From the NCBI GenBank assembly GCA_021787565.1, contig JAJYLT010000012.1:28166-92165 (forward strand): a DNA stretch of 64,000 nucleotides, written 5' to 3'. This document shows, one piece after another, positions 1 to 28,158 of this stretch (the first letter of the stretch is position 1; the number at the start of each line of letters is the position of its first letter). Source of the stretch: Acidobacteriota bacterium. Its GTDB lineage: Bacteria > Acidobacteriota > UBA4820 > DSQY01. Made by a program: the position numbers and the translations under genes. The notes beneath the pieces are model-generated. The model did no database searches and was not told the origin of the DNA. It was given only the letters and a program-made list of their open reading frames with translations.

Positions 1-26
1 TTCATGCGGGTCTCCTCAAAGGGACT

Positions 27-989
27 TCACGAGGGAGGGGTCAGCCGGATGCGCCGCAGGATGGCCGGGATGTCGCGCGGGTAGGCGTGGATCCAGAGGA
101 CCGCCAGGCCGAGGTGCTCGAAGGCGTCCCAGACGGCGCGGCGCGAGGCCGAGTAGCGGATGGCCTCGCGGCTGTCGCCGGGGAGGGGCGCGGGCGGCTT
201 GAGCAGGATGAAGTGGCGGTTGGGGACGGCGAGCTTGCGGGCCAGATCGATCAGCCGCCGCAGGTTCGGGTCCTCCCCCGAGGTGCCGATGAAGAGGCAG
301 GTGGTCCTGGCCAGGAGGTCGATGAAGACGTGGTCCGTCCAGTGGTACGGCTGGTGCAGCCGGTCGTGGTAGTCGTCCTCCGAGAAGATAAGGCTGGTGG
401 AGCGCCGGAGGGAGGGGTCGGCGGGCAGGAACCCGTGGGTGTGGTAGATGGGGATCCGGCAGCGGGGGATCTGGATCGGGGCCTCGAAGATACTCCGGTA
501 GCGCCCCGCTACGCCGAGGCGCTGGGCGAAGGTCTCCAGGAGGTCGTCGAAGTTCAGGGTCAGGATCGCACAGAGGCGCTCCATCGCCAGGATCTCCCGC
601 ACCGTGCCGGAGAGCCGGGGCGGCCGCTGGTAGAGGGCCTTGCGGACCTCGTCCAGGAACCGGTCGCCCAGCTTCGCCTTGACGTAGCGGACGATCATGG
701 GCCGGACGCGCTCCTTGAGGGTGGCCTCGATGTCCCGCACGTGGAGCGGCGCCTCCTCCGGCCCCACGGCGTCGTACAGCCCGGCCAGCGAGCTGCGCAG
801 GAGGCTCCGGGTGAGCTCCTCCCACATGGGCACGCCGCAGGCCTTGGAGACCCCGGCCCCGAGGACGAGGCTGAGCCGGCCCTCCCGGTAGGCCTCCTGG
901 AGGGCCTGAAGCTCGGGAGCGTTCCACTCCCGCTCCTTCTCGACCTCGCGCTCGGCCAGCGCCTTGCGCCTGGCGGATGGTTCAGCCAC
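27..989 (-). CDS. SIR2-like domain protein (SIR2_2/PF13289-type; candidate NADase defence effector)
   Basis: Motifs LVLGAGVSKACGVPMWEEL (GAGxS NAD-binding loop), LNFDDLLE, IYHTHG match the SIR2_2 family. Overlaps the upstream symporter by 8 bp. A further minus-strand gene starts at nt 5 with a GGAGG RBS. Confidence 0.6.
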   Translation of the reverse strand: MAEPSARRKALAEREVEKEREWNAPELQALQEAYREGRLSLVLGAGVSKACGVPMWEELTRSLLRSSLAGLYDAVGPEEAPLHVRDIEATLKERVRPMIVRYVKAKLGDRFLDEVRKALYQRPPRLSGTVREILAMERLCAILTLNFDDLLETFAQRLGVAGRYRSIFEAPIQIPRCRIPIYHTHGFLPADPSLRRSTSLIFSEDDYHDRLHQPYHWTDHVFIDLLARTTCLFIGTSGEDPNLRRLIDLARKLAVPNRHFILLKPPAPLPGDSREAIRYSASRRAVWDAFEHLGLAVLWIHAYPRDIPAILRRIRLTPPS

Positions 990-2326
990 CGGCCTCCTCC
1001 AGCCGCCCCTCCCAGAGGTAGGTCCGCGTCTCGGCCACCAGCACGCCGCTCAGCGCCAGGAGGGAGACGAGGTTTGGCACCGCCATGAGGGCGTTGGCGA
1101 TGTCCGCGAAGGACCAGACCAGGGGCAGGGTGGCCACCGAACCGAGGAGAACCGCCCCCACCCAGAGCAGGCGGTAGGGGAAGATCACCTTCGGGCCGAA
1201 GAGGTACTCGGCGGCCTTCTCGCCGTAGTAGGACCAGCCCAGGATCGTGGAGAAGACGAAGGTGAGCAGGGCGAAGGTCAGGAGGTAGGGGCCGATGGCC
1301 GAAAGGTCCTGGAAGGCGCTGCGCGTGAGGGCGGCCCCCTGCAGCCCCTTGGTCCAATCGGCGGAGATCACCAGGACCAGCCCCGTCATGCCGCAGACCA
1401 CCACCGTGTCCCAGAAGGTGCCGGTGGAGGAGACGAGGGCCTGGCGGACGGGGTTCTTGGTCTGCGCCGCCGCGGCCACGATGGGGGCGCTGCCCAGCCC
1501 GGACTCGTTGGAGAACAGCCCCCTCGCGATGCCGAAGCGCATGGCCTGGAGCACCCCCGCCCCGAGGAAGCCGCCGGCTGCGGCCTGGGCCGTGAAGGCG
1601 TCCTTCACGATGAGCAGGATGGTGGCCGGAATCTCCGGGGCGTGCATGATCAGGATGAAGGCGCAGCCGATGATGTAGACGAGGGCCATGACGGGGACGA
1701 GCGCCTCGCAGACGCGGGCGATGGATTGGATCCCGCCGAGGATGACCACGGCCGTGAGCACCGTCATGGCCGTGCCGGTGACCCACGGCGAGAGGGAGAA
1801 GGTCTCCTTCGCCAGGGTGGCGATGGAGTTGGCCTGCACCATGTTGCCGATGCCGAAGGCGGCGAAGGCCGTCAGGGCGGCGAAGATCAGCCCCAGCCAG
1901 CGGGCCTTCATGCCCCGTTCGAGCACGTACATGGGGCCGCCCGCCATGGAGCCGTTGGGCATCGTCACGCGGTACTTGACGGAGAGGAGCGCCTCGGAGT
2001 ACTTCGTCGCGATGCCAAAGACCCCCGTCAGCCACATCCAGAGCACGGCCCCTGGCCCTCCGGCCGCCACGGCCGTGGCCACGCCCACGATGTTGCCCGT
2101 GCCGATGGTGGCCGCCAGCGCGGTGGTGAGCGCGCCGAACTGGCTCACGTCCCCCTCGCCCTCCCGGCCGCGGCCGAGGGAGAGGCGGATCCCCTTGAAG
2201 GTGTAGCGCTGGACGAAGCGGAGCCGGAAGGTGAGGTAGAGGTGCGTCCCGAAGAGGAGGATGAGCATGGGGGGGCCCCACACCTGGTTGCTCACCGCCC
2301 CCGCCAGTTTCTCCAGGGCTTCCATT
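982..2326 (-). CDS. Na+/alanine (amino acid) symporter, AGCS family
   Basis: N-terminus MEALEKLAGAVSNQVWGPPMLILLFGTHLYLTFRL, multiple TM segments, and a TALAATIGTGNIVGVATAV motif typical of AGCS. Confidence 0.8.
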
Positions 2327-2404
2327 CCGCTCCTCTCCCGGCCCGACGCGCCGCCCGCCCATCCTCGCATCGGGGCCAGCCCCCGGTCAAGGAAAGGAGG
2401 GGGA

Positions 2405-2556
2405 CCCCAATTCCGCGATAGCGGCTCAACGCCTGCGTAGGAGCGGCGCCTCGCCGCGAACCGGGTGACCCTGCGACCAGGATGCGGTGCCCGCGTACGG
2501 TCCGTCGCGCCGGGGGCGGCGCTCCTACGAGTGCAATTCCATCGCGGAATTTGGGG
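2405..2556 (-). repeat. 150-bp REPIN-like element copy 1 (two inverted REP-like GTAGGAGCG hairpins)
   Basis: Near-identical to 19540-19689 and 28007-28158 in inverted orientation. Termini ccccaa(a)ttccgcgat... are inverted repeats, and the internal sequence GTAGGAGCGCCGCCCCCGGCGCGAC forms a hairpin. Confidence 0.7.
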
Positions 2557-2901
2557 AGGAGAAGAGCGGAGCGAAAGACGGGGTCAGGAGTGAAAAGAGA
2601 CAGCGGCACCACCAAGCCATGCGGCAGGCCGATATGGCCGTGGGTGTCGGGATGGCGTGCCATGCTGACGTGAGAACGCCGTGCTCGCGCCCACGCGGCG
2701 CGGTCACGTGGCGGGCGGCTTATGGCAGGACGGAAGCAAGGCCGGCCGAAGCCAGCGTAACGAACCGACCGGGAACTCCGTTCTGTGTACGGTGTCATGT
2801 CATGCCGGGTGCCGGAACGGCACGGCCGTTGCCAATGGGCTTCCTTGGCATTGAAGGAATGGGGAAGTCTGCGGCCTGCCCGGAAGCTCCCCGTATCTTG
2901 A

Positions 2902-5900
2902 GTGACGCCGGGCGGCATGGACGAGTCGGAGAGAGGGGGGTTCACCATGGCAATGGGGAAGGGCTGGACGGCGCGTGGCAGCGCGCGGGCGGTGGCGTGC
3001 ATCTGCTGCATGGTGGCGTCGATGGCCGGCGTCAGCGCGTGGGGGCAGCAGGCGCTCTCGTTTGTCGAGAGCGCTCCTGGGTTTCAAGCGGTCATGCCGT
3101 ATCAAAATTTCGGCAATGGAGAACACATCAACATCGGAAATGGCGGACTGACAGTCATCCATCCTTCGGCCATTTCGCTGCCGCAGAACATGGGCCAGGT
3201 GCTCCGTCCCACGCGCGTATACAACAGCAAGAACCCCAACCTGCCCTTTGGGGTCGATATCGATGATAATTTCAACTACCAGGCGGACCTCCCGTACGGT
3301 CCTCTCGGCATGGGGTGGCAGCTCAACTACGGGCGGGTGTTCTTTCGGATGGGCGAGGCGGACGTTCCCAATACCGGGGCCGGTGCGGAAGGGACAACGG
3401 AAAAAATATCGCTCTGTTTTTATTACTACCAAGACGAGAGTGGCGCCGAACATGAGCTGTATCTGAAGGGGGGCACTGAAAATTACACGGGACCGGGCTC
3501 GAGCAGCCAGAACCCGAACGACTATCCGTGTGCTAATTCGCCGGTGGCCGGAACCTGGTACGTGACGAACGATGGAAGTTACTTGCGAGCGCTCTTTACG
3601 GGAGGGGCGAACGGCGGGACATGGACCATTTATTACCCGGATGGCTCGACGCGGGTTGCGGGGGGAGCGAACGCCTATTTTCAGCCCATTCCAAACGCGG
3701 CGGCTGGAACCGTACACCAGAATGGTGATGGTACGTACTGGTATCAGGCCGGGCTCCAGAACATGCGGACGAATGGTTGGTACGTGACTTCCATCAAAGA
3801 CATCGCGGGCAACACGATTACCCTGAGCTACCTCGCCGCGAACAGCCCCGGCTATCCCGGGTACAATAAGGCTGGTGCCCTTGTTCTTCCCGGGTCCATC
3901 AATCAGATCACGGACGAGTTCAATGTCTCTACTCGCGCTGTCACCTTCCATTACAGCCAGGGACTGCTGTCGAGCATCTCGGCTTACGGATATGGGGGGC
4001 AGGCACTGACGGAGTCGTACACCTATACCACCGGGATTTTCGGCAATCATAATGAGAGCCTGCCCCTGCTCCAGGAAGTCACGACACCAGACGACCTCCA
4101 AACGGTCTACGGGTACACGGCCGTGACCGACGACGCCGGTGTACCATGGATGCTCCTCTCGCAGATCGGCTATCCAACGGGTGCAGTTTCCTCCTACACC
4201 TATGGAACCTGGAGTTTCGAATGGCGCGTACCGGCTGCTATCTTCGAAGCGACGGGGCAGTGGCAGAGCAAGGGGGAAACAGAGGTCGCGGTGACGAGCC
4301 ACACCATCACCCTGGCGCCGCTGAATCTGCCTGAAGGCAGCGGAGGCTTGGGATCACCGAACAACAGCTTGACGTGGACTTATCAATATTACGGGAACAA
4401 CCCGTCAGCGAATCCTCCCGAGAACTATTACTTGAACTACCTGAACCGTTCCGTCAACGATCAACCTATCATGTCCATGCCCGTGCTCGTGACGGATCCG
4501 CTGGGGACTCAGGAGGCCCACTTCATCGCCTTCGGAGATCTCGACAGCTCCGTGAGCACCCTGGTGCCGGCAGGGCACGAAATCGCGGTGATTCGTTACG
4601 CTCAGGGGACGGTCTTTGATCCCAGCAGCGCCACCAGCGTGGAAAACGGGCGGATCTTTGAGAAAGACCTCTATTACTCCTCCGGCTTCGGGGTTCATGA
4701 TAACGAGCGGATGGGGGATGCGGGTTTCTGCGGGGATTATACGGGTGGGGCCGCGCTGACCCCGCTGGACATCATTCCGAACTCGAACCCGCGCATCTGG
4801 AAGGTGGTGGAGACCGAGTATACGCCGGCGTCCGGCTCGCCCGGGACGCCGCAGTGGAGCCGCACCACCCGGCATGCTTTCTGGGACGGGTTCGGCCACT
4901 ATCTGGTGACCGAGGTCGGCCAGACAGCGGACCTGACTGGCACGGGGTCCAGTACCTATCCAGTCATGCGTGTGACAGTGTCCCAATACGCCCTTCAGAC
5001 GGAGGGGAAGACCTCTTACCAGACCAACGAGTTGGTGCAGCAGTACACCGGCGGGAACATGAGCGCCGGTCCCTTTCCGGCCGTCAATGCGCCGCCTGCA
5101 GGAACGACCTCGCTGGCCCTCCTGCAAACGCAGGTGCCCGATTCCGAAGACCAGGCAACGGAATCATCCTCCGGCACCTACTCTATTTCGGAGCCTACGG
5201 GTGGAGGGGGCGGGCTGCGGGCGATCTCCTACACGTACACCACCACGGGTCTCCTCGCCTCCAAGATCGAGTATGAAGCGGTCCAGCATAGCGTCACAGC
5301 GGGGTGGACCCCAGCCACGTCGACCTCTTCCTGGTCCTGGAACATCAGCCCTCCGCAGTCGCCGTCTCCAGAGAATGAAGGCGGGGATGTGACGACCTCC
5401 TATAACTACGATCCCAACGGCAATATCTCTCAGCTCGAGTACTCTCAAACCGGCGACTCCTACACCATGATCTTCGACTGGACAGATGGTGTGGTGAGTT
5501 CTCTCCAATGGAGCCGGAGCGGGTGGCCCGCCGGGCTCTGGACGCGCAAGATCGACCAGTACTCGAGCCTGATCAGGAGCCAGACGGATATCTGTACAAG
5601 CGGCGGACTGACGACCAGCTACGCCTATGATAGTGCCGACCGCCTCTCGATCATCGCACCGCCCGGCGAGTACCCGGTCAATATCGCCTACCCCCCCACG
5701 ACAACGTCGCAGAGTATCGGAAAGGTCCACCAGTGGAACATTGAACACGTTATCGAGTACTACAAGGGCCAGCATGCCATCTCGTCCGGCACCGTCACGG
5801 CGCTGCCCCCCGACGAGAGCCAGCTGGCGACACCCAGCAATTTCGGCCCCCAGGATCTTTACAGCCAGTACACCTTCGACGGCCTGGGGCGGCTGTGGAA

Positions 5901-8900
5901 GACGGACACGGTGCGGCCTGACGGCGGCTGGCGGGAGCAGGTCACCCTCTACGATCCGCTGGGGAGGAAGCTCTTCGCCTCGCTGCCCTACGATCCGGCC
6001 AGTTCGCCCGGAATCAGAACGATAACCTACCCGCTCGCGAGCGGCAGCGCCTTCACCTTCGGCGTGCCGATGGGCACATCGGGCAACGCGCTGGGCACAT
6101 GGGACATGATCCAGTCGGGCAATCCTCTCTCTGGGTGGGGGACGCTGGATCCCTTCTACCGGACGGTGGAGGTGATCCGGCCCGACGGCTCGACCACGAC
6201 CACCACCTACGCCAGCCAGCTTGACTGGACGACCACCATCAACGGCGTCGGCGGCGGAGGGCAGTCCAGCGGTATGGAGTATACGAAGGATATCCTCGGG
6301 GAGCTTCTCACCGCGACCCCCGTGCAGGCGGCCAGCATCGGGGCCAGCGGGACCTATTCCTATGACGGCCTGGGGCATCTCACCAACGTCAGCCTGAGCG
6401 GACAGACGCGAAGCTACCAATACGACGCGCTGGGGCACCTACTCAGCCAAACCAACCCCGAGACGGGGACCATCACCTACGGCAGCTACGACGCCCTGGG
6501 AAACCTTCTGAGCTATACCGACGCCAACGGAAATGCGATCAGCGAGGCCTATGACTTCATGGGGCGTCGCACGAGCGTGAGCAGTAACGGCCAGACCCTG
6601 GCTACGTGGAGCTACGACGGGGGCGGCAGCGGACCCTACGACCGCCTGACCGGGACCGAGACCACCGCGAGCCCTCTCGCGACGCCTCCGCCCTTCGGCA
6701 ACGGCGGTACGGTTACCGAGGCCTTCACTTACGATCCGGCCACCGGCCGGATCGCCGGGAAGAGCGTCTCGTTCAGCCTGGGCAGCCAGATCCCGGCCGA
6801 GAGCTACAGCCTCTCCTACGGATACGACCTGATGGGGAACCTGGCGACGGAGGGTGTGGGGGGATCCAGCTCCTTCGGCTACACCCTCACCTCGGCCTAC
6901 GGGCACGGCGGACTGCTCTCGAAGAGCTTCCAGGACGGACAAGGCGTCTCCGCGATTCAGTACTTTCCTTCGGGGGCGCTCCAGAGCCTCGCCTACACGA
7001 ACGGCACGACCACCTCGTTCGCGCAGGACGCGGTGGAGCGGCTCGACGGGATTGCCGTCGCCAAGGGCTCCTCTTCGCTCTGGTCCACCGGCTCCTACAC
7101 CTACGACGGGGCGGGGAACATCCTCTCGATCGGCTCGGACAGCTTCACCTACGACCTGCTGAGCCGCCTCACCGGCGCGACGGTGAACCACAGGAACCCG
7201 GCGACGGAAGCGGCCGGGTCGGTGCAACTCACGTACGGCTACGACCCCTGGGGGAACCTCACCTCGAGGGTCGCGCAGGTTGTGAACGGCAATAACATGG
7301 ACCCTGGCAGCCCGAACCAGACCACGTTCCTGGGCGAGACGAACTTCACGGCCACGTACAATGCCTCCAACCAGCTCCAGACGCTCAACAACCAGCCGAT
7401 GCCGAGCGGCATCTACGACGCGAACGGGAACCTGACCACGGAAGGCAACAACATCCTCACCTACGACCCGCTGAACCAGGTTCAGCAAGCGGTCACACCG
7501 GGCAGTTCGCAGACGCCCTCCTACAGGGACTACTATTTCTACGATGCCTCAGGCGAGCGCGTGGCTTCGGTCCATACGACCGCCTCGACGAGCCAGTTGA
7601 ACACCGTGACCTACTACGCCCGGACGGGGTCTCAGGTCCTCGCCGAGGAGCACCTGGCGCTGGATGGGAGCACGCCAGCGGACCACGTGAAGGCGTACCT
7701 GTACGTGGGGTCGAACCTGGCCACCTCCGAGGAGGGGGACGTGGGGGGCGCCGGCGGCACCTACAGCATCTCGGGCACCATCACGCTGAACGGCTCGGGG
7801 CTCTCCGGGGTGACGGTCAGCGCCGGGACGGGCGGCACGGCCACTACGGACGGCAATGGCAACTACACCATCAGCAACCTGGCGAACGGCACCTACACGG
7901 TGACGCCGAGCCTGAGCGGGTACACCTTTTCGCCGGCGAGCGCCTCGGAGACGGTGAACGGCGCCAACATCACGGGCGTGAACTTCACGGCTGCGGTGGT
8001 GACCACGACCTACAGCCTCTCGGGCACGGTGACGCTGAACGGCTCGGGGCTCGCCGGGGTGACGGTGAGTGCGGGTTCGGCCTCGGCGCAGACGGACAGC
8101 AGCGGGGTCTACACGATCAGCGGCCTGACGAACGGCACCTATACGGTGGACCCGAGCCTGAGCGGCTACACGTTTTCGCCGGCGAGCGCCTCGGAGACGG
8201 TGAACGGTGCCAACATCACGGGCGTGAACTTCACGGCTGCGGTGGTGACCACGACCTACAGCCTCTCGGGCACGGTGACGCTGAACGGCTCGGGGCTTTC
8301 GGGGGTGACGGTGACGGCCGGGTCCTATTCGGCCTCGACGAACAGCACGGGGGCCTACACGATCAGCGGCCTGGGGAACGGCACCTTCACGGTGACCCCG
8401 AGCCTGAGCGGGTACACCTTCTCCCCGGCCAGCGCCTCGGAGACGGTGAACGGGGCCAACATCACCGGGGTGAACTTCACGGCGAGCGCGGTGATCGGGA
8501 CGACGACGCTCTTCAGCGACGGGTTCGAGGGCAGCGCGTGGTCCACGGCGCAGGTGTCCGGGACCGCGGGTGCCTGGACCATGGTGACCTCCGGGGCCAA
8601 TCCCGGCGCCTCCCCCCATGGGGGCTCTTATATGGCCGATTTCAACTCCCATACCGCCGCCGCGGGAAGCGAGACGCGTCTTTACACGACATCGGGCTTC
8701 GCCATCCCCTCGCAGGCGGGCGCCGTGGTCACGCTGACCTTCTGGATGGATCACGACACGGGCTTTTCGAGTGCGGGCGACGAGGTGCAGGTGCAGGTCT
8801 CCACGAACGGCGGGGGCACCTGGACGGACGTGCCGAACGTGGTGGCGGACGGGTTCTTCCGCGTGAACGGCAGCACGGGCTGGGCCGAGATGAGTCTGGA

Positions 8901-15679: not shown

Positions 15680-16712
15680 GGGGTCAGGTCTTTAGTGTTA
15701 GCCTCACTTGTGCTATGCTCCGGGGGTATGGTCTTTGTGTGGATTCATGAACGGCCCTAGGGAGGTGAATGATGGCCCGTCCGCTTCGGATTGAGTTTTC
15801 TGGTGCGGTTTACCATGTGACGTCGCGCGGGAATGATCGTCGGACGATCTTCCGGGACGACGAGGACCGGCGGCGATTCCTGGAGGTTCTCGGCCGGACG
15901 GTGGTGCGTTGGGGATGGGTGGTTCACGCCTACTGTCTCATGGGCAACCACTACCACCTCGTGATCGAAACGCCCGAGCCGAACCTCTCGCGAGGGATGC
16001 GGCAGCTGAACGGGGAGTATACGCAGGCGTTCAACCGTCGGCACGTGCGGGTGGGGCACCTCTTCCAGGGGCGCTTCAAGGCGCTGGTGGTGGAGAAGGA
16101 GAGCCACCTGCTGGAGCTGTGCCGGTATGTGGTGCTCAATCCGGTTCGCGCGCGTGGCATGCGGGTGGGCTCTCCCGAAGACTGGCCATGGAGCAGCTAT
16201 CGCGCGACAGCGGGAAGGGGCTCGGCGCCGGCATGGTTGACGGTGTCATGGATCTTGTCGCGCTTCGGCAAAGATGGGGCCAAGGCCCGAGAAGGGTACC
16301 GGCGCCTCGTGGCTGCGGGCATGGGACAGAGGCCGGACCTGGACGAGTGGGCAGGCTTGTGGATCGGGTCGGAGGGTTTCGGGGCGCGCCTGAGGGGCCT
16401 GCTCGGGGAAAAGGAAGAGGTCCGCGAGCACCCTAGGCGCCAGCGCCGCCCGGATCGTCCAGATCTGGCGTCCTACCTGCCGTTGGACCTTTGCGAGGAC
16501 CGGGCCAAGAGGGACGAGGCCGTCTACGGCGCCTACATCGAGGGGCGTTTCAGCCAGCGGGAGATCGCGGATCACCTCGGCTTGCACTACGTCACCATCA
16601 GTGGCATCGTCCGTGCCAAGGAGTTGGAGAAGCGACAAGATGGTAAGACCGAAAGGAAAAGGAGATAGCGGCCGGCCGTGGACAGAGACACTAACACTAA
16701 AGACCTGACCCC
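15680..16712 (+). mobile_element. 1033-bp insertion element with perfect 22-bp TIRs (GGGGTCAGGTCTTTAGTGTTAG) encoding a HUH/Y1 transposase
   Basis: Left TIR 15680-15701 and right TIR 16691-16712 are exact reverse complements. It interrupts an Rhs core sequence. No obvious target-site duplication. Confidence 0.75.
15769..16668 (+). CDS. HUH/Y1 tyrosine transposase-like protein (IS200/RAYT-like) with C-terminal HTH
   Basis: HUH motif GNHYHLVIETP. Candidate catalytic Tyr WPWSSYRAT. C-terminal HTH REIADHLGLHYVTISGIV. Confidence 0.7.
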   Translation: MMARPLRIEFSGAVYHVTSRGNDRRTIFRDDEDRRRFLEVLGRTVVRWGWVVHAYCLMGNHYHLVIETPEPNLSRGMRQLNGEYTQAFNRRHVRVGHLFQGRFKALVVEKESHLLELCRYVVLNPVRARGMRVGSPEDWPWSSYRATAGRGSAPAWLTVSWILSRFGKDGAKAREGYRRLVAAGMGQRPDLDEWAGLWIGSEGFGARLRGLLGEKEEVREHPRRQRRPDRPDLASYLPLDLCEDRAKRDEAVYGAYIEGRFSQREIADHLGLHYVTISGIVRAKELEKRQDGKTERKRR

Positions 16713-16923
16713 TGTCTTGACTGTCTTTCACTACTAAGCCGCTATCCGGCTACAGAATTATCTTGGACAGCAGTGATGGGACCTCCTTTTCCCGGCTCCA
16801 GGCTGGCGCTCACCCCTTGCGACACCGCCGAACCCCCTTCCGATTGGTCCGCGGTGAGGCGCGGATCACACTTTCGATGGCGCCTCGGGTAACTTCCCTC
16901 TCGCCGCCATCGTACAATGGCGC

Positions 16924-17895
16924 ATGGAGAAGACCATGACGGAAAGCGGAGAGAGGGTGGAGGATCACGAAGGGGGGCGGAGGGCCAAGGGATCTCCAGT
17001 GGGATGGCTTCGCCGCGTCTTCATCGGGAAGGCGGGCCTCAGAACGGGCTGGAGACTCCTTCTGTTCATCGTTCTGACGGGAGCGGGAATGGGAATCCTC
17101 CGGCTGGGGATCTCGGCCGTCCCCGGTGCCAAGCAGCTTGTTCGGCTCCAAGAGGGGCAGCTGTTCAGTTCGGTGACTCTTCTCGTCTCGGAGGTGATCT
17201 CGTGCCTCGCCCTCCTTGCGGCCGGGCTCGTCATGGCCCGGATCGAGGGAAAGTCCATCTTTACGTACGGCTTCGCGTTGAGGAGGGACCTCGGGCTGCG
17301 GCTCGTGGAGGGGGCCGCATGGGGGTTCGTATTCGTGACAGCCTTGTATGCCCTCCTCGCCGTCGAAGGGGGATTTCTGGTGCAGGGATTCGAGACCGGC
17401 GGCGCTCTGCTCCTTTCCTCAGCAGGCCTATGGGCCGTGGCCTGTCTCGGGGTCGGCCTGGCCGAGGAGTTCTCCTTCCGGGGCTACGGGCAGCACACGC
17501 TCGCCGGCGGAATCGGCTTCTGGCCCGCGGCGGTGATCCTATCCTTCGTCTTTGGAGTTCTTCATCTGGCCAATCCGGGCGAGGGCTGGGCAGGTGCCGC
17601 GAGTGCGGCCGTCTTCGGCCTCTTCTTCTGCTTCTCCCTCAAGAGGACGGGCACCCTCTGGCTCGCGATGGGGATGCATGCTGCGTTCGACTTCGGGGAG
17701 ACGTTCCTCTTCGCAGGCTCGACCGGCCTCCTCGCGACGAAGAGACACCTTCTCGAAAGCGCCGTCCACGGACCCGCGTGGCTGACTGGGGGAAGCGTGG
17801 GGCCCGAAGCCGGAGTCAACGGCCTCGTCCTCTTCCCCCTCCTCTTTCTGGCTTTCCACTTGACCCATCCCGAACAGGCGGAGACTCCGTCCTGA
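16924..17895 (+). CDS. CPBP-family intramembrane metalloprotease (CAAX protease/Abi domain)
   Basis: EEFSFRGY (EExxxR), FGVLHL (FxxxH) and HAAFDF motifs, with several TM helices. Confidence 0.7.
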   Translation: MEKTMTESGERVEDHEGGRRAKGSPVGWLRRVFIGKAGLRTGWRLLLFIVLTGAGMGILRLGISAVPGAKQLVRLQEGQLFSSVTLLVSEVISCLALLAAGLVMARIEGKSIFTYGFALRRDLGLRLVEGAAWGFVFVTALYALLAVEGGFLVQGFETGGALLLSSAGLWAVACLGVGLAEEFSFRGYGQHTLAGGIGFWPAAVILSFVFGVLHLANPGEGWAGAASAAVFGLFFCFSLKRTGTLWLAMGMHAAFDFGETFLFAGSTGLLATKRHLLESAVHGPAWLTGGSVGPEAGVNGLVLFPLLFLAFHLTHPEQAETPS

Positions 17896-18465
17896 GGCGC
17901 ACCCAGGCCCGACGCGGGACATCCCGCGGCTCCATCGGGACTTTGACGGGAATTCCCAACGGGGCGCCGGAGACTTGGTGTTGTGTCCCCGAAATAGCTT
18001 TACGGGGCATCCTGACCAGGGACACAACACTTCCCCAGGGGTTCCGCCCCTGGAACGCCCGCCCGCGGCGGGCTGTAACCTCGAAAGAGCGGGGAAGCCT
18101 CTTCCCCGCGCCCCTTTGGGTGCTGTCTACCACGCAATGCCACTGTCAACCTTTTCAGGGACAGCACCCTAGCGTGGTGTCTCCGAAACGGGTTCAACAG
18201 GAAGGCTCGCCCCATAATTCGTGCACGTCCGGAGGGCAGGCAGGCCTTCCAAGCGTCTTAGGCGCTTTTCCGGGCGAGTAGCGCCGGAGGGAGAGGCCTG
18301 GTCTGGTGCGGATCATCTCGAGGTATTCCCGCGAAGGGCTCCTTTGGAGAACCTGCCCTGAGGGCGTCCTTGCGAAGGGAAGCTCCCAAGGGAATCTCGG
18401 CTGTCCTTTCTCGGCCTTCCCGTTGTCGCCACGGGGGAACGCGGGGTCAGGGGGAACGGGAACGA

Positions 18466-18501
18466 GGGGTCAGGTCTTTCATTGCCACATTTCGCTCATC
18501 C
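18466..18501 (+). repeat. 36-bp junction element (copy 2)
   Basis: Identical to 13804-13839. Lies in a 560-bp noncoding stretch. Confidence 0.6.
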
Positions 18502-18778
18502 GGCCGCGTGCGATTCGGGGGACATGCTGTCCGGTCCGCGGGTCCATGGGATTGAGGGGATCGGCCGATGGGGGCATCGACCGCCAAGGGTGAATGGGAA
18601 CATTCGGGGGCGGACAGGCGGGGCGCCTGTCCCTCCCGAGTCTGGGGGGGCCGAGCCGCTGAGGAGCGGCGCCGCTTCGCCGGTTCTGCGCACCCTGCGG
18701 ATCTCTCTCCCGGCTGTGCCTTCCGTTCCTTTGGCCCGACAGGGAGAGCGCGAGGGCCGGCTTCCGGCCGGGTCCTGC

Positions 18779-19453
18779 TCAGTTGAGGAGGGCCGGGTCG
18801 AGGCGAAGGGAAGCGGGGCGGCGCTTGAGGCGCTCTTCGAGGGAGCCTTTGAGCAGGCGGAAGCGCTCGGGGATGGAGCGCGCCTCCAGGAGCGCCTGCT
18901 TGGCCTCGGGCCCGAGGCGAAGGGCCATGGCCGCCACCACGATGAGCTGGTCGTCCTCGCCCTTGGCCAGCTCGCGGATGACGGTGACCACCTTCTCCGC
19001 CGGGCCCTCCAGGAAGAGCGGGAGGGCCGCCAGGAGGTCGAAGCGCAGGGATTCGACGGAGCTCTCGCTGCCGCGGCCCTCGGTGGAAAGGGGATCGATC
19101 CGCACCTGGCGGTAGCGGGTGAGGGTTTGCAGCTCCTCGGCCACCCGGAACTCCTGCACGCCCAAGAGCCAGATGAGGTAGCGTCCGCCCGTCAGCTCGT
19201 GGTGCCTGGCGATGATTCCTGCGCAGCCCACACCGCGGATGGGGGGCCGCTTCATGGATTCGAGACTTTCCGGTTCGCCCTCCTCGCCTTCGATCTGGAC
19301 CATGCCGATGATGCGGTGACTCGCGAGGGCGTCGCGCACCATGTCCCGATAGCGGCGCTCGAAGATGTGCAGGGGCATGAGCTCGCCCGGCAGGAGCACC
19401 GTGTGGACCAGGGGGAAAATCGGAATGACCTCGGGCACGGCTACGGGCTTCAT
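18779..19453 (-). CDS. LON N-terminal (LON substrate-binding) domain protein
   Basis: IPIFPLVHTVLLPGELMPLHIFERRYRDMV matches the LON N-terminal domain consensus. Start chosen at MKPVAVPEV. Confidence 0.6.
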   Translation of the reverse strand: MKPVAVPEVIPIFPLVHTVLLPGELMPLHIFERRYRDMVRDALASHRIIGMVQIEGEEGEPESLESMKRPPIRGVGCAGIIARHHELTGGRYLIWLLGVQEFRVAEELQTLTRYRQVRIDPLSTEGRGSESSVESLRFDLLAALPLFLEGPAEKVVTVIRELAKGEDDQLIVVAAMALRLGPEAKQALLEARSIPERFRLLKGSLEERLKRRPASLRLDPALLN

Positions 19454-19539
19454 GACCTCTTTCCTCTCGCGGCTCCTGGCTGGATCCTCTCCTCTTGCCC
19501 TAACGCGCCGGAGGGGCTCGACTATTGCGGGAGAAGATA

Positions 19540-19689
19540 CCCAAATTCCGCGATGGAATTGCACTCGTAGGAGCGCCGCCCCCGGCGCGACGGACCGTAC
19601 GCGGGCACCGCATCCTGGTCTCAGGGTCACCCGGTTCGCGGCGAGGCACCGCTCCTACGCAGGCGTTGAGCCGCTATCGCGGAATTGGG
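19540..19689 (+). repeat. 150-bp REPIN-like element copy 2
   Basis: See 2405-2556. Sits in the divergent promoter region between the LON-N gene and the AddB-like gene. Confidence 0.7.
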
Positions 19690-19724
19690 GAGAAAGCTAA
19701 AAGTTGCAGGTTACAAGTTAGAAG

Positions 19725-22553
19725 TTGAAAGTGAAGGGTGAAAAGAGGCGGTGCTTACTTGGATTCGCCTTTCACCGTTCCGTGGTACAACGGCCGGAGG
19801 AGGCTCGGGTGGAAAAAGAGGGGGATCTGATCTTCGAAAGAGCCGAGGAGCTGGAGGCCCGGTGCGCGGAAGCGGCCATGGGGGGGGACCTGGTGCTGGC
19901 CGCCCGCGGGCGCCTCGCCCGGCGCATCCTCCATCGCTGCCGCCTGGCCCGGATCGGCAACGCCTCCGGATGGGTCTCCCCTCGGGTGTTCGGCCTGGAG
20001 CACTGGATCCGCTCCGTGTACGAAGGTCTGTGGGACGAGCGCCGGCCCATGGGCGGGGCCGCCGCCCTGCGCCTCTGGCACGCGGCCGCGGCCCGCGAGC
20101 CGGCGCCCGGCGGACTCTCGCCCGCTCCCTCGCTGTACCTCCAGCTCCAGGAGAGCTTCGAGCTCCTCCAGGGGCGGCGCCTTTCCGTCCAACTGGACCC
20201 ACGAGGCGACGAGCTTCCCGCGTGGCGGGCGCGGGTCACCCGGCAGTTCCGCAAGCTGGCCGCCGCCGAAGGGTGGGCGACCTCGCCGGACAGGATGGAG
20301 GCCGTGTGCGGCGCGCTCGCGGCGGGGCGCGTGGCGCTCCCTCCGCGGGTCGTCCTGGCGGGCTTCGACGATCCCGCGCCCATGGTCGAGGAGATCGCCG
20401 GAGCCGTCGCCTCCCGGATGGGGCTGGTCCGCTGGCGCGCGGGCGCGGCTCCCGAGGAGGGGACGCGGGTGCGGGTCTTTCCGGTGCCCCTCCAGGAATG
20501 CCAGGCGGTGGCGGCGGAGGCCCTCGACGCCTGGAACCGGGGTCAGAGGCGCCTCGGAATCGCCTTCTTCGGCCGCGAGTACGGCGACCTGCTGGCGCGC
20601 TGCCTCGATGAGCTCGCGGCCGGGGCGCCTCTGCGGGAGGGGGCCCTGAGGTACAACCTCACCCAGGGCACGCCGCTCACCGACCACCCGCTGGTCCAGG
20701 CCGCCCTCACGCCGCTGGGCCTCGCCTCCGAAGGGAGGGCGTGGGAGCTCCTGCCCTCCCTGCTCGCCTCGCCCTACGCGCGCCCTTCGCTCGAACGGTG
20801 GAGCAAGCGGACCCTCGACCTCCTCTGCTCCGCCACCCGGACCGGCGGGACACGCGCCGCGGTGGAGGGGCTCTGCGCGCAGGGCCTGCCCCTGCGCGCC
20901 CTCGCGGGGCTCTTGCGGCCCGGCCCCAGGAGACTGGAGGAGTGGCTGGCCGGCCTGGCCCGGCTCTGGCGCGAGCTGGATTTCCCCGTGCGATCGCAGC
21001 GGCGGGAGACCCGGGAGACCGACGAGCTGGCCTGGCGCCACCTGTGTGACGTGGTGGAGGCCCTGAGGCGGGACGCGGGCGATCTGGAGGTGACGGCGTC
21101 GGAGGCCGCGGCCTGGATCGCCGCCGCCTCCTCGGGCATCGAGGTCATCGAGAAGACGCCGGAGACGGCGGGCATCCAGGTCCTGCCCGTCTCGCAGGCC
21201 CGCGGCCTGGCCTTCGACGGCCTGTGGATCGTGGGCTGCCACGGACGGGCTCTGCCTCCCCCGGTGCCGGATCACCCGCTCCTGGCTCCGGCGGAGCGGG
21301 GTCTGCTGGAGGAGGCCAGCCCCCAGGGCCAGTGGGCGGCGGGACGAAGGACGCTGGAGGCGCTGGCGGCGTGCAGCGAGGCGTGCCGCTTCAGCAGAGC
21401 CGCGCAGGCTGGCGACGAGCGCCCCTTTCTGCCCTGCCCCCTGCTGGCGGACGAGCCGCCGGAACGACAGGAGGACCGCCCGCTGGACCTCTGGTCCGAT
21501 CCTCCGGAAGCCTGGCTCCGGGCGCGCTGGCTGCGCGGGGGTCTGACCGGGCTCGCCTCGCCGCCGCCGGCCCCGCGCGCGGGAGGGGATGGTGCGCCCT
21601 TCGCCGTGCCGTCTTCCCTCAACGTGACGCAGGACCTTCAGGCGCTCATGCAGTGTCCCCAGAAGTTCTTCTGCGCCCGGGCGCTCGGGCTGGAGCCCCT
21701 CCCCGAACACCGGGAGGGCATCGCCCCCGAGGTGCGCGGGCAGGCGATCCACTCGATCGTCGCGGCCTTCGTGCAGGGCATTCTGGACGACGCTTCGGGC
21801 TGGCCCGCCGATGGGGCGCTGGCCCGGCGCCGCCTGGAGGCCGCCGCGGACGCGGTTCTGGAGCGCCACGCCCGAGAGGGCGCCCCGGCCTTCTGGCGCG
21901 TCGAGCGGAGGCGCCTTCTGGGCGATGACGACGCGCCCGGGCTCCTGACCCTGTGGCTTGAAATGGAGCGGGAGCGGGCCGCCGCCGGCTGGCGCTTCCT
22001 CTTCGCCGAGGAGCCCTTCGAGGATCTCGCGCTGGAGGGGGCGGAGATGGCGCTTCGCGGCCGGATGGACCGGGCGGACGCGCATCTAGAGGAGGGTCTG
22101 GCGGTCTGGGACTACAAGACGGGCCAGCTTCCTTCGCCGGCCGAGGTCCTCTCCCACTGGGCCCACCCGCAGCTCCCGGCGTACGCGGCCGCTCTGACGC
22201 GCAGGCCGCTGGCCGAGGAGGTGCGCAAGCGCCTCCCCGCCCTTCCCGAAGGCGGGCCGGCGGTGCGCGGAGGCTACGTGGCGCTCCGGCGCGTCAGGGA
22301 TCTCTCCGCGGCCTTCCTGCGCGAGCCGGGCAGGGGCGGTGGCGACGTTGTTCTCTCGGAGAAACTGGGCGAGTGGGAGCGGGCCGTGGCCCTGCGGCTG
22401 GAGGGGCCTAAGGCGGGACGCTTCGCGGCCGATCCGAGACCGCCCTTTCTGGGACCCGGGAGGGAGGGCGCCTGCGCGTTCTGCCCTTACGACAAGATCT
22501 GCGGCTATTTCGACGGCACCGACCGCCGCATGGCCGAGGAGGAGGAGGCGTGA
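19725..22553 (+). CDS. addB: AddB-like PD-(D/E)XK nuclease subunit of a helicase-nuclease complex
   Basis: C-terminal nuclease region with Fe-S Cys cluster CAFCPYDKICG and RMDRAD...DYKTG motifs. Overlaps the downstream helicase gene by 4 bp. TTG start is uncertain; the first ATG is at ~19878. Confidence 0.6.
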   Translation: MKVKGEKRRCLLGFAFHRSVVQRPEEARVEKEGDLIFERAEELEARCAEAAMGGDLVLAARGRLARRILHRCRLARIGNASGWVSPRVFGLEHWIRSVYEGLWDERRPMGGAAALRLWHAAAAREPAPGGLSPAPSLYLQLQESFELLQGRRLSVQLDPRGDELPAWRARVTRQFRKLAAAEGWATSPDRMEAVCGALAAGRVALPPRVVLAGFDDPAPMVEEIAGAVASRMGLVRWRAGAAPEEGTRVRVFPVPLQECQAVAAEALDAWNRGQRRLGIAFFGREYGDLLARCLDELAAGAPLREGALRYNLTQGTPLTDHPLVQAALTPLGLASEGRAWELLPSLLASPYARPSLERWSKRTLDLLCSATRTGGTRAAVEGLCAQGLPLRALAGLLRPGPRRLEEWLAGLARLWRELDFPVRSQRRETRETDELAWRHLCDVVEALRRDAGDLEVTASEAAAWIAAASSGIEVIEKTPETAGIQVLPVSQARGLAFDGLWIVGCHGRALPPPVPDHPLLAPAERGLLEEASPQGQWAAGRRTLEALAACSEACRFSRAAQAGDERPFLPCPLLADEPPERQEDRPLDLWSDPPEAWLRARWLRGGLTGLASPPPAPRAGGDGAPFAVPSSLNVTQDLQALMQCPQKFFCARALGLEPLPEHREGIAPEVRGQAIHSIVAAFVQGILDDASGWPADGALARRRLEAAADAVLERHAREGAPAFWRVERRRLLGDDDAPGLLTLWLEMERERAAAGWRFLFAEEPFEDLALEGAEMALRGRMDRADAHLEEGLAVWDYKTGQLPSPAEVLSHWAHPQLPAYAAALTRRPLAEEVRKRLPALPEGGPAVRGGYVALRRVRDLSAAFLREPGRGGGDVVLSEKLGEWERAVALRLEGPKAGRFAADPRPPFLGPGREGACAFCPYDKICGYFDGTDRRMAEEEEA

Positions 22554-25500
22554 GCCGCCCGGCCCCCGACCGGGAGATTCGACTGAAGGCCCTCGATCCG
22601 CGGGGCAGTTTCGTGTTGGAGGCGCCCGCCGGCTCGGGCAAGACCGACCTTCTCACGGCGCGCTTTCTGGCCCTTCTGGGCACGGTGGCCTCCCCCGGGC
22701 AGATCGTGGCGCTCACCTTCACCCGCAAGGCCGCGGACCAGATGCAGCAACGCATCCTCGGCGTCCTGGAACGGGCCCGGAGGGGAGCGGAGCCGGAGCA
22801 CGAGTGGGACGCGCATCTGTTGGACCTGGCGCGCCGCGCCCTCGACAATCCGGGCTTCGCGGAGGGCGTACTGCGAAACCCCCAGTCCTACCGGGTGGGC
22901 ACCTTCCACAGCTTCTGCTCCTCGGTGGCGGGGGGCTGGCCGCTGGAGGCGGGCGTCCCCCCGGGCGCGAGCCTCCTCGAAGAGCTGGACCAGGGCCGGG
23001 CCCTGGAGGCCGCCGTGGAGTCCTGCTTCGGGGCGATTCTTTCGGGCGGCGCTCCGGATCTGCGCGAGGCCTTCGAGCGGCGGCTGGCGGCCGCCGACAA
23101 TCGGTACGAGCGGCTCAGGGAACAGGTGACCAGCCTGATGGCCCACCGGGACCGACTGCTCGCTTTCGAGGAGTTCCTGCGAAGCGGCGGCGGAGACCTC
23201 GGTGCCGCCGCGGGGCGCGTCCTCTCCGACCTGGTGGCCCTCGCGATCCGGCCGGCGCGCGCGCACTTCCTGGACCACGAGGAGCAGTGGCGCGAACTGC
23301 GCCGCGCCCTGGAGGCGTGCGGGGCGCCGTGCGCGCGGGACTGTCCCCTCGAAATCCCCGGCGAAGGCCTTGAGGCGATCCCGGCCTGGCAGGCGCTTGC
23401 CGGCCTGGTCCTGAAGAGCGATGGGGGCACCTACACGAGCTTCGCCGGCGCCAAGTTCGGCGCCGGGTTCGGGAAGACGGCCGCGGCGCAGTTCCTGAAG
23501 GAGATTCCGGCGGAGGCGGCCGAGGCCCTGGCCACGGTGCGGCGCTGGCCCCCCGCGGGGGAGGACCCGGTGGGACTGGAGGCGCTGGCGGACCTGCTGG
23601 CCCTGGCCGATTCGGCGCGGCGGCACCTGGCGGCGCGGATCCCGGGAGCGGGGCTGGACTACCTCGAACTGGAGCTGGCCGCCCTGCGCTCCCTGCGCTG
23701 GGCCGAGGTCCCGAGCGAGAGCCTCATCTTCTACAACGAGCACCTGAGGCACCTCCTGGTGGACGAGGCGCAGGACATGAACGAGGTCCAGGTGCGGATC
23801 CTCTCGCGCCTGACGGAGGGGTGGGAACCGGGCGACGGGCGGTCGCTCTTCGTGGTGGGCGATCCCAAGCAGAGCATCTTCCGCTTCCGCAGGGCCGAGG
23901 TGAGCCTCTTCACCGGCCTTCAGGAGCGGGGGCTGGCGAGGGAGGGGGAGGCCAGCTATCCGCTCGTCCCCCTCGAACTGACCTCCAACTTCCGCTCCGA
24001 GCCCGCCCTCGTCGGGTTCTGCAACGCCCTCTTCGAGGCCCTCTGGCCCGAACCGGGGAAGGACGGGGAGGGGGTCGCCTTCCGGGCCTCCGAACCGGCG
24101 CGCGAGGCCTCCTACGCGGGGGTGGGGGTGCGGGTGCGGGTGGCGCTCTTCACGCAGGGCGAGGAGGCCCGACCGGGAGCGGCTCCCCTGCCGTCCGCCG
24201 CGGAGCGGGAGGCCGCCTACGTGGCGGGCAGGGTCTCCGAGCTGTACGCGGCGGAGCCGGGGGCCACCATCGGCCTGCTCTTCCCCGCCCGTCCGGCCCT
24301 GGGGCCGTTCGTGTCGGCCCTGAACCGGCTGGGAGTGCCGGTCCGCCTCGTGGAGGGCGAGAGCCTCGCCGGCCGGCCCGAGGTCCGGCACCTCGTCAAC
24401 CTCTTCACGGCCCTGGCCCGCCCTTACGACGACGTGGCCTGGGCGGGGTGCCTGCGCTCGCTGTGGCTCTGGCTATCGGACGCCGAACTGCTTCGGCTGT
24501 CCTCGCTGGGCGGCTTCTGGTCGTCGAAGGTGCTGGCGCAGGCCGAGGGCGAAACGCCCTCCTCGCCCTTTGGGCTGGCCGCGCGGGAGGCGCTGGCGGC
24601 CTTCGGCCGGGAGCCCTACGAGAGGACGCTCGCGCGGCTGTGGGAGGACCTCGGGGGCCCGGCGGCCGCCGCGGCGCGATACGGAGCCGCCGGGGTCGCC
24701 AATGCCCGTGCCTTCCTCGATCTGCTGGCGACCTGTTCGGGCAGGCCCGCCGAGGAGGCCCTCTCGCGGCTGGCCGAACTGCTCGATTCGGCCTACACGC
24801 CGCCGGACCCGAGGGCGGCCTTCTCGCCCGTCTCGGCCATGACCGTCCACAAGGCCAAGGGCCTCGAATTCGACCACGTCTTCGCCGTGGCGCTGGGCCG
24901 GGACCCTCTCGGGGGGAGCCGGCAGGAGCACCCCTCCTTCCGCATGGAGCGGGTGCCCCTGCCCGGCAGGCCCGTGCTCGTCGCCGCCGGGCCGGACGCG
25001 GGGCGGGGCGAGCCGAACCTCGCCTACCGGCTCCTGGAGGAGCTCGACCATCGGCGCCAGTTGGACGAGAGCCTGCGCCTCTTCTACGTGGCGGCCACGC
25101 GGGCCAGGCGGAGCCTCACGCTCACCGGCAGGGCCGGCATCACGCAGAAGGGACTTCTCTCGGTCCGCAAGAAGTCCAGCGCGCTGGGGCGGCTGATGGC
25201 CGCCGTGGGCGGGGCGGAGGGGGCCCTCGACGAACCGTGGCGCTCCCTCGGCCTGAGCCTCGAAACGGACCCAGAGCCCGCGCGCGGGGGCGCTCCGGCC
25301 GGCCGGCCGCGCCTTCCGGGCGAGTCTCCGCCCTTCGAGGCCCAGCCCCTGCCCTACCGCATCAGCTCTCCGTCGGCCCTGCAGGAGGAGACGGCGCAGG
25401 CCGCGCCCTTCGGTGCGGACGACGCGGCGGATCCCAACGCCAGGCCCCGCGGCGTGGTCCTGCACCGGCTGTGGGAGCGCCTCGCCCTGGGGGCCTCCCT

Positions 25501-28006: not shown

Positions 28007-28158
28007 CCCCAAATTCCGCGATGGAATCGCACTCGTAGGAGCGCCGCCCCCGGCGCGACGGACCGGACGCGGGCACCGCATTCTGGTCGCAGGGTCACCC
28101 GGTTCGCGGCGAGGCGCCGCTCCTACGCAGGCGTTGAGCCGCTATCGCGGAATTGGGG
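28007..28158 (+). repeat. 150-bp REPIN-like element copy 3
   Basis: See 2405-2556. Lies between gpmA and the otsA-otsB fusion. Confidence 0.7.

Follow-up and report, generated by a model that had tools for sequence, protein, structure and literature searches.

Does the SIR2-like gene at the left edge of the window, by which we mean the whole stretch of 64,000 nucleotides that was analysed, belong to a defence system? The preliminary description proposed a candidate NAD+-depleting defence module. In that proposal, a SIR2_2-type gene begins inside the end of an AGCS symporter gene and is followed by a partner that leaves the window, so that the type of system depends on the unseen gene. We took the off-window sequence from a public contig (L001; ENA ERZ27233565 k141_47905) that matches window positions 1-2541 at 99.8%. 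The features of the locus are as follows:

Positions 1 to 5, minus strand: start of the off-window gene for a 474-aa POT-like MFS permease, with its ATG at 5-3; the continuation lies in L001.
Positions 12 to 17, minus strand: Shine-Dalgarno sequence of the permease gene, GAGGAG, read from the sequence and conserved in loci L007, L008 and L009.
Positions 27 to 989, minus strand: SIR2_2 gene, single-domain, 320 aa, GTG start, stop at 29-27; the first conserved gene of the operon.
Positions 982 to 2325, minus strand: AGCS Na+/alanine-glycine symporter gene, 447 aa (PF01235, 3e-138; TIGR00835, 482 bits against a cut-off of 272). The bounds are those of the gene call in L001; a longer ORF reaches 2370.
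Positions 993 to 1000, minus strand: Shine-Dalgarno sequence of the SIR2 gene, GGAGGAGG, read from the sequence and lying within the last AGCS codons.
Positions 998 to 18767, no strand: inserted segment of ~17.8 kb relative to the MAG KM4345-20 (L009), from the collinear comparison with L009.

The 320-aa protein described earlier, with its GAGxS, NFDDLLE and YHTHG motifs, is indeed encoded here. It matches PF13289 (SIR2_2) in Pfam with E=1.5e-17 (64.5 bits against a cut-off of 24.5), and the motifs fall at G44-A45-G46-V47-S48, N146-F147-D148-D149-L150-L151-E152 and Y182-H183-T184-H185-G186. All three blocks are invariant or nearly so in an alignment of 19 orthologues, and G44, G46, N146, D148, H183, H185 and G186 show no variation across 60 sequences, relatives at 30% identity included. 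The motif residues align to the NYD and HG motifs of ThsA; the NAD-binding loop GAGxS and the catalytic pair Asn146/His185 are intact. The AF2 model has a pLDDT of 93.1. Both this model and Pfam place the C-terminus, residue 320, directly after the SIR2 domain, with no extra domain. Orthologues at 62-97% identity show a dN/dS of 0.06-0.20, similar to that of neighbouring genes, indicating that the frame is coding and no high-GC artefact. The ORF encodes a genuine, selectively maintained single-domain SIR2_2 protein whose structural class is that of ThsA, KomC and DSR2. Sequence and predicted fold alike set it among these anti-phage NADase sirtuins and apart from the deacylase sirtuins, and NADase activity is predicted from the conserved residues.

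The gene downstream of SIR2, which had been expected to decide the issue, does so: it encodes a POT-like MFS permease. Its ATG was correctly placed, but the spacer from the SIR2 stop (29-27) to the ATG (5-3) is 21 nt and not 22 bp, and the ribosome-binding site reads GAGGAG (17-12) instead of GGAGG. In L001, the 474-aa ORF is followed by a gamma-carbonic-anhydrase-like (LbH) gene, and the genes farther out include a PMT glycosyltransferase. The permease matches PF07690 (1.5e-27) and PF00854 (PTR2; 6.8e-11, 42 bits against a cut-off of 27), and it reaches 85 bits with TIGR00924 (4.8e-24), below the cut-off of 130. The best solved relative is the POT structure PepTSo2, 4LEP (2e-15). The ExxER proton-coupling motif of TM1 was not found: an invariant E23-L24-(L)-H26-C27 stands where 4LEP has E-L-W-E-R. 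Retained are K121-P122 in TM4, the FSIYY-x-INVGS (FYxxINxGS-like) motif, and the glutamate E392 in TM10.

The order SIR2 to MFS was observed in all 19 related loci that extend beyond the SIR2 stop, down to 62% protein identity, and the LbH gene comes next wherever the locus sequence suffices. In 8 of the 19 loci, the MFS gene starts before SIR2 has ended, with overlaps of 4, 8 or 16 nt (GTGA or ATGA among them) that recur across separate sub-lineages. Six further loci have a gap of 9-22 nt with a GGAG ribosome-binding site, and five a wider one (60-180 nt in some). From this arrangement, SIR2 and the permease are probably co-transcribed and often translationally coupled, with the gamma-carbonic-anhydrase-like gene linked more loosely. 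A scan of window positions 1-3000 for sigma-70 promoters and intrinsic terminators returned none, although such a scan is uninformative for Acidobacteriota.

The 16 GTDB species with matches are all Acidobacteriota/Thermoanaerobaculia MAGs. Pairwise identities of SIR2, MFS and LbH correlate (r=0.77-0.83, Mantel p<=5e-4), and the flanks are syntenic, with a dodecin gene downstream in nine loci and a Lon-N-like gene upstream in four. The SIR2-permease-LbH block carries no mobile-element signature of its own. It is inherited vertically within one Thermoanaerobaculia (Acidobacteriota) clade, in a stable chromosomal neighbourhood. Two loci, L003 and L013, are 99.98% identical downstream, but their SIR2 genes are only 74% identical. 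If real, this discordance resembles allele replacement as seen at defence loci.

Permeases orthologous or paralogous to this one also occur without SIR2 (L023-L028, L114), so the permease can do without the SIR2 enzyme. In a midpoint-rooted NJ tree, the SIR2-linked permeases are not monophyletic, which is compatible with multiple losses or with paralogy. The proteins encoded upstream of the SIR2-less permeases in L026 and L028 were considered as divergent SIR2s and rejected: they have no Pfam match, their hhalign probability is 0.1%, and they are mutually unrelated.

The coupling to the AGCS symporter, which had been judged odd, has a different history. The SIR2 start does lie 8 nt inside the end of the AGCS gene (982-989), whose TGA stop (984-982) falls in the SIR2 start region, but the junction is not conserved. 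The window, L001, L002 and L008 are the only loci with AGCS upstream of SIR2; L007 and L009 lack it, and it is missing beside SIR2 in relatives whose SIR2 is 94-97% identical. L009, a 94%-identical relative, is collinear with window positions 19775-24690, 18768-19529 and 1-997, with just 240 nt in place of 998-18767. By Pfam, that segment contains AGCS, a 2811-aa RHS-repeat protein, unknown ORFs and an IS200-like transposase. The overlap thus results from the left edge of the ~17.8-kb insertion, and the AGCS/SIR2 coupling is a recent, strain-level feature. The insertion would have taken away the native 5' region of SIR2, including about 15 N-terminal codons; SIR2 may since have been expressed through coupling to AGCS, with the 8-nt overlap as a by-product. 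An Rfam scan of the whole window, with a riboswitch upstream of AGCS in mind, gave no family above threshold. The zone immediately upstream of SIR2 is a rearrangement hot spot with RHS cassettes.

Outside these loci, relatives are distant. When 1.84 billion representatives were scanned exhaustively with HMMER, the family formed one isolated cluster at 50% identity, with the next match falling from 450 to 191 bits. The nearest relatives are single-gene TIR-SIR2 fusions (e.g. P0023, P0028, from Vibrio sp.), which are 32-41% identical along nearly all of the 320 aa. They differ in carrying an N-terminal TIR of about 150 aa and in being lone genes in unrelated genomes with no MFS partner. This fusion architecture is typical of conflict systems; the fusions found here sit among housekeeping genes. 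Many stand-alone SIR2_2 proteins of ~290-410 aa are also among the nearest relatives. Among 80 metagenomic loci that carry related SIR2_2 genes, not one has a POT-like MFS gene within 5 kb. Literature searches for SIR2-like genes in operons with MFS genes, and for TIR-SIR2 fusions, found nothing relevant.

The HerA, pAgo/APAZ or TIR/ThsB-like partner suggested earlier was not found, the permease standing in its place. The ~10 kb of recovered flank contains no HerA, pAgo/APAZ, TIR or SLOG gene, and no TIR family gene lies within ~10 kb of SIR2 in L001, L003, L004 and L006. PADLOC, proposed as a check, gave only partial matches for the SIR2 protein, in the SIR2 parts of the ThsA, LmuA and Dsr1 models, and its models matched none of the MFS, LbH, AGCS, RHS and unknown neighbours.

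Comparison with the individual systems agrees with this. The PADLOC model of ThsA (type I Thoeris) was matched only over positions 96-275 of 478, and the alignment to the ThsA structure 6LHX ends at residue 282; the C-terminal SLOG/STALD ligand-sensing domain of ThsA is missing from our protein. Type I Thoeris also has an adjacent ThsB TIR gene, whereas the locus here lacks ThsB, is vertically inherited and is coupled to a permease. KomC, the stand-alone SIR2 NADase of Kongming, has a similar fold, but the likeness in sequence is confined to the N-terminal GAGxS region. KomA/KomB-like genes are absent near SIR2, where the partner is a membrane transporter instead. DSR2/DSR1 were the top Foldseek matches (E~1e-13, TM about 0.6 on the SIR2 domain). 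However, DSR proteins have about 1000-1260 aa and a large C-terminal phage-protein sensor, and the 320-aa protein scores 22.8 (Dsr1) and 14.7 bits with the DSR NCBIfam models against a cut-off of 1400. The adjacent HerA-type ATPase gene of SIR2-HerA (Nezha) was not found, nor was the SIR2-APAZ and short pAgo pair of SPARSA: the protein has no extra domain and no Piwi/MID gene lies nearby. FAM118B, a non-canonical vertebrate sirtuin, is eukaryotic, has very low sequence similarity (E~5e-4) and lacks a link to a transporter.

Thus the class of the protein, that of the anti-phage NADases, bears out one part of the proposed defence module, but its partner is a permease, and the pair is syntenic in 16 Thermoanaerobaculia species. 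The SIR2-permease operon is no known defence module but an uncharacterised enzyme-transporter operon. We hold with high confidence the joint description of the locus: the identity of the partner, the conservation of the operon, the recent origin of the AGCS junction and the lack of correspondence to a known defence system. The preliminary description had named a combination of findings that would speak against defence, a housekeeping gene downstream together with a SIR2 that is a conserved core deacetylase-like protein. This combination was largely borne out, except that the protein is not deacetylase-like. A defence role is less likely than was first assumed.

What, then, might the pair do? 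Our preferred reading, put forward tentatively, is that the operon encodes a resident module in which SIR2 works with the permease to control peptide or amino-acid uptake in a manner linked to NAD+, and not a mobile abortive-infection module of known type. The SIR2_2 protein has no sensor domain, and the permease is its sole constant companion. Functionally associated with this permease, the enzyme would consume NAD+, either hydrolysing it or using it for ADP-ribosyl transfer. The state of the permease would govern the enzyme, or else the enzyme would adjust the permease to the NAD+ of the cell. Such a logic would be akin to that of GlnK-AmtB, in which a cytosolic signal protein is paired with a transporter. 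The gene of the small, cytosolic, nucleotide-binding GlnK shares a conserved operon with that of AmtB, the transporter which GlnK regulates; the likeness is one of logic only, the protein families being unrelated to the SIR2-permease pair. In this scheme, we infer that NAD+ is cleaved, that SIR2 and the permease are coupled physically or functionally, and that the role is not one of defence. The TIR-SIR2 fusions as nearest relatives, the SIR2-less permeases, the L003/L013 discordance and the upstream RHS hot spot were counted against it.

To our knowledge, all bacterial SIR2_2 enzymes characterised so far are anti-phage NADases gated by a fused or adjacent sensor. The characterised close structural relatives that we know of (ThsA, KomC, DSR2, Avs5 and the Nezha SIR2) are all anti-phage NADases, and the homology prior therefore leans to immunity. 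On the unlikely side, but the most probable of the alternatives, is a two-gene defence system fixed in the lineage. The sensor-less SIR2 would be an NAD+-depleting effector, restrained by or activated through the permease, and the permease would be the sensor or 'guardee' for phage attachment, DNA entry or membrane de-energisation, with a logic like that of Kiwa and RexAB, systems that pair a membrane sensor with a cytosolic effector. This fits the closeness in fold and sequence to ThsA, KomC and DSR2, the intact catalytic residues, the kinship with TIR-SIR2 fusions and the tight translational coupling to a membrane protein, as well as the possible swap of SIR2 alleles and the variable RHS/insertion hot spot next to SIR2. 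KomC, too, is a stand-alone SIR2 that relies on a separate partner protein, according to PDB titles. However, the permease is matched by no PADLOC model, keeps the transporter motifs K121-P122, FSIYY-x-INVGS and E392, and occurs elsewhere without SIR2. Vertical inheritance, the housekeeping neighbourhood, low dN/dS and the lack of a mobile-element signature argue against it as well, as do the 80 other related SIR2 loci, of which none pairs with such a permease.

A reading that spans both sides, which we regard as doubtful, is a two-component module, unrecognised until now, that couples a defence-type NADase mechanistically to a nutrient transporter. As a membrane guard, the permease would report phage entry or lost membrane energisation and so release NAD+ depletion. 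As an NAD+-gated transporter, the pair would represent a domesticated immune sirtuin now in metabolic control of peptide uptake.

It is unlikely that SIR2 is self-contained, with no functional tie to its neighbours and a coupling that merely reflects long-standing operon co-expression. Such a protein may be a single-gene NADase that assembles into filaments, as FAM118B and KomC do, and responds to an unlinked trigger. The stand-alone proteins among the nearest relatives, the lone TIR-SIR2 genes amid housekeeping genes, the permeases without SIR2 and the loci with spacers of 60-180 nt are consistent with this, but the gene order holds in every one of the 19 informative loci, at protein identities as low as 62%, and with its recurrent overlaps exceeds the usual neutral synteny.

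A housekeeping protein deacylase of the classical, CobB-like type is very improbable. Its conservation, vertical inheritance and purifying selection would suit such a role, but only SIR2_2 matches were obtained, with none to the classical SIR2 Pfam family (CobB/Sir2, PF02146), and the sequence has neither a CxxC...CxxC zinc module nor the Zn-ribbon small domain. Finally, membership in a known SIR2 system (Thoeris, SIR2-HerA, SPARSA or DSR) with its partner just off the window, to which the partial PADLOC matches might point, is refuted by the recovered downstream sequence (MFS permease, gamma-carbonic-anhydrase-like, PMT glycosyltransferase and other genes) and is contradicted by the end of the protein after the SIR2 domain and by the Dsr1 score.

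A practical lesson is that a SIR2_2 match and an operon overlap alone do not point to a defence system. Here, over a long evolutionary span, a sensor-less member of the SIR2_2 family has been retained as a core partner of a peptide-type permease, to which it is coupled in translation. If this coupling is functional, it could be a new trigger for an immune NADase, with a membrane transporter as the sensor. Alternatively, it could represent an immune enzyme recruited to the housekeeping control of nutrient uptake, which would parallel the vertebrate FAM118 proteins, reportedly descended from the same SIR2 class.

The SIR2 gene at the window edge encodes a product that exceeds the gathering score of the Pfam family SIR2_2 (E=1.5e-17) and carries the three motifs named in the preliminary description. 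As described there, it starts 8 nt inside the end of the gene for the AGCS symporter, a Na+/alanine-glycine transporter: the symporter stop TGA (984-982) falls within the SIR2 start region, which reads GGAGGAGG-CCG-GTG-GCT-GA.

27..989, minus strand, SIR2 ORF, 320 aa, GTG start; GAGVS at residues 44-48, NFDDLLE at 146-152, YHTHG at 182-186
982..2325 (or to 2370), minus strand, AGCS symporter ORF; PF01235 3e-138, TIGR00835 over its cut-off

Behind the SIR2 stop (29-27), the ATG of a further minus-strand gene was found at 5-3, where it had been placed; the spacer measures 21 nt, not 22, and contains GAGGAG, not GGAGG.

The exact SIR2 protein is encoded on public contigs, one of which (L001, ENA ERZ27233565 k141_47905) is 99.8% identical to window 1-2541 and runs on for 10 kb. 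The gene after SIR2 (L001:2537-3961) encodes a 474-aa MFS protein with profile matches to MFS_1 (1.5e-27), PTR2/POT (6.8e-11) and TIGR00924 (4.8e-24, under the trusted cut-off). The best solved relatives of the permease family profile are POT structures (PepTSo2 4LEP, 2e-15), and the POT signature residues of the TM4 Lys-Pro, the FSIYYxINVGS motif and the TM10 Glu are retained. The canonical proton-coupling motif of POT TM1, ExxER, is replaced by an invariant ELLHC across the permease family (alignment A3). The third gene encodes a 183-aa gamma-carbonic-anhydrase (gamma-CA)/PaaY-like hexapeptide protein (NF050158 1.5e-50, below cut-off); beyond it lie genes for a PMT glycosyltransferase and a sigma-54 activator, among others. 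This 10-kb flank contained neither HerA nor Argonaute/APAZ, TIR or SLOG genes, and PADLOC models gave zero matches to the neighbour genes. The off-window gene encodes a POT-like permease instead of a partner of the HerA, pAgo/APAZ or TIR/ThsB-like type.

For SIR2 itself, PADLOC and NCBIfam yielded only partial, low-scoring matches to the SIR2 portions of ThsA, LmuA, Dsr1 and Dsr2. A confident AlphaFold2 model computed from a 60-sequence alignment (pLDDT 93.1, pTM 0.91) matched DSR2 and BcThsA in a Foldseek search of the PDB (E~1e-13). Against ThsA (6LHX), the profile alignment covers the entire SIR2 domain and ends where the SLOG domain of ThsA would start. N146 and H185 align with the NYD and HG motifs of ThsA, which hold its catalytic N112 and H152. 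In the family, as well as in relatives at 30% identity, N146, H185 and the GxG loop are invariant. All this makes SIR2 a complete anti-phage-type SIR2 protein that lacks a sensor and is probably catalytically competent. Among known proteins, KomC and the SIR2 domain of ThsA come closest.

A POT-like permease gene directly follows SIR2 in all 19 related loci that reach past the SIR2 stop, and the gamma-CA-like gene comes next in every locus with sufficient sequence. SIR2 stop and permease start overlap in eight of the 19, by GTGA or ATGA (L006, L017, L019, L021), 8 nt (L003, L033) or 16 nt (L018, L020). Six loci, the window lineage included, have a gap of 9-22 nt with a GGAG RBS, and five a wider one (60-180 nt where the permease start is placeable). 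Translational coupling is frequent in this conserved operon. Short purine-rich tandem repeats (GAGATGAGGAGATGAGGA...; GTTGAGAGTTGAGAG...) enlarge the spacer at L013:4889-5067, L014, L015 and L004:8957-9021. The three genes co-diverge (identity-matrix r=0.77-0.83, Mantel p<=5e-4) with similar dS and low dN/dS (0.06-0.20 for SIR2), and synteny extends to dodecin (downstream, nine loci) and a Lon-N-like gene (upstream, four loci), as befits a vertically inherited chromosomal operon under purifying selection and unlike a mobile defence island. Permease homologues (45-69% identity) also occur in other contexts without SIR2 and the gamma-CA-like gene (L023-L028, L114); the unknown proteins encoded upstream of these copies were considered as SIR2 relatives and rejected as unrelated. 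Among 80 metagenomic loci with related SIR2_2 genes, none had a POT-like MFS gene within 5 kb, indicating that the pairing is specific to the SIR2 family of the window.

The coupling to the amino-acid transporter, previously singled out as odd, exists but is not conserved. An AGCS gene upstream of SIR2 is confined to the window, L001, L002 and L008; it is lacking in L007 (SIR2 97% identical) and in L009 (MAG KM4345-20; SIR2 94% identical). The window is collinear with L009 in these blocks:

19775-24690, AddA/AddB
18768-19529, Lon-N-like gene
1-997, SIR2

Window 998-18767 (~17.8 kb) is replaced by just 240 nt in L009. The insertion, with its junction at ~nt 997, contributes:

982..2325, minus strand, AGCS
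2902-11337, 2811-aa RHS-repeat/CarboxypepD_reg protein
11702-13396, 13820-14815 and 16917-18281, unknown ORFs
15769-16668, IS200-like Y1 transposase

In L009, SIR2 starts 15 codons further 5' (MARMPGEKPKGPWGP...), preceded by its own intergenic region. In the window, the last AGCS codons and stop cross former SIR2 5' coding sequence, and SIR2 now starts at an internal GTG behind GGAGGAGG. Given the collinearity with L009 and the absence of AGCS from such close relatives, the overlap is a recent by-product of the insertion, not a conserved design.

Sequence matching the 3' (C-terminal) part of the window RHS gene lies immediately 5' of SIR2/AGCS in L007 and L008, which marks the site as a rearrangement hot spot. 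A 65-nt repeat occurs at window 10544-10608 (3' part of the RHS gene), 12600-12664 and 14073-14137 (downstream ORFs), and once in L009 (5788-5852, SIR2-upstream intergenic region); RHS C-terminal or orphan cassettes may recombine at this repeat. A ~152-nt element is present in three copies, 98-100% identical:

2405-2556, minus strand, just 5' of AGCS
19540-19690, plus strand, just 5' of the AddB-like gene
28007-28158, plus strand, just 5' of the OtsA/B fusion gene

Each copy is sense-oriented, with terminal inverted repeats of ~16 nt (CCCCAA(A)TTCCGCGAT...ATCGCGGAATTGGGG) and internal palindromes. The element looks MITE- or REP-like and had no match in Rfam. The AddB-like (PD-(D/E)XK) and AddA-like (UvrD helicase + PD-(D/E)XK) gene pair spans 19725-25930, the OtsA-OtsB fusion (trehalose-6-phosphate synthase/phosphatase) 28153-30648.

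In a word-indexed search, the family comprised 21 clusters of SIR2-only proteins (315-355 aa, 62-97% identity), followed by a gap to <=38%. When 1.84 billion representatives were scanned exhaustively with HMMER, it came back as one 50%-identity cluster (450 bits), with the next match at 191 bits and 37% identity. All 16 SIR2 loci are from Acidobacteriota/Thermoanaerobaculia MAGs; the GTDB scan covered one genome per species. Outside the family, the closest relatives are proteins in which a TIR domain precedes SIR2 in one chain, along with further stand-alone SIR2s; both TIR-SIR2 fusions examined are lone genes in housekeeping surroundings. A literature search for SIR2_2-MFS operons and TIR-SIR2 fusions retrieved nothing.

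These fusions among the relatives, together with the homology prior, favor a two-gene defence system fixed in the lineage, whose membrane sensor or guardee would be the permease; we regard this reading as rather unlikely. The same reading draws on L003 and L013, which are 99.98% identical over 5750 bp from inside the permease gene onward but only ~74% across SIR2 and the permease N-terminus (L003:1463-2485 vs L013:3957-5107). Such a discordance could stem from replacement of the SIR2 allele or from chimeric assembly of a MAG; the L003 SIR2 resembles the L033 lineage. It is unlikely that SIR2 is self-contained, with no functional tie to its neighbours, and highly improbable that it is a classical deacylase. 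That SIR2 belongs to a known SIR2 defence system is effectively refuted; the protein fails the defining architecture tests of Thoeris, DSR, SIR2-HerA, SPARSA and Kongming.

The conserved pairing of a defence-type SIR2 gene with a transporter gene is new. We tentatively propose that SIR2 has a resident, NAD+-linked control role with the permease. SIR2 would consume NAD+ and, as the protein lacks a built-in sensor, this activity would be tied to the permease: either the permease would regulate SIR2, or SIR2 would regulate the permease.
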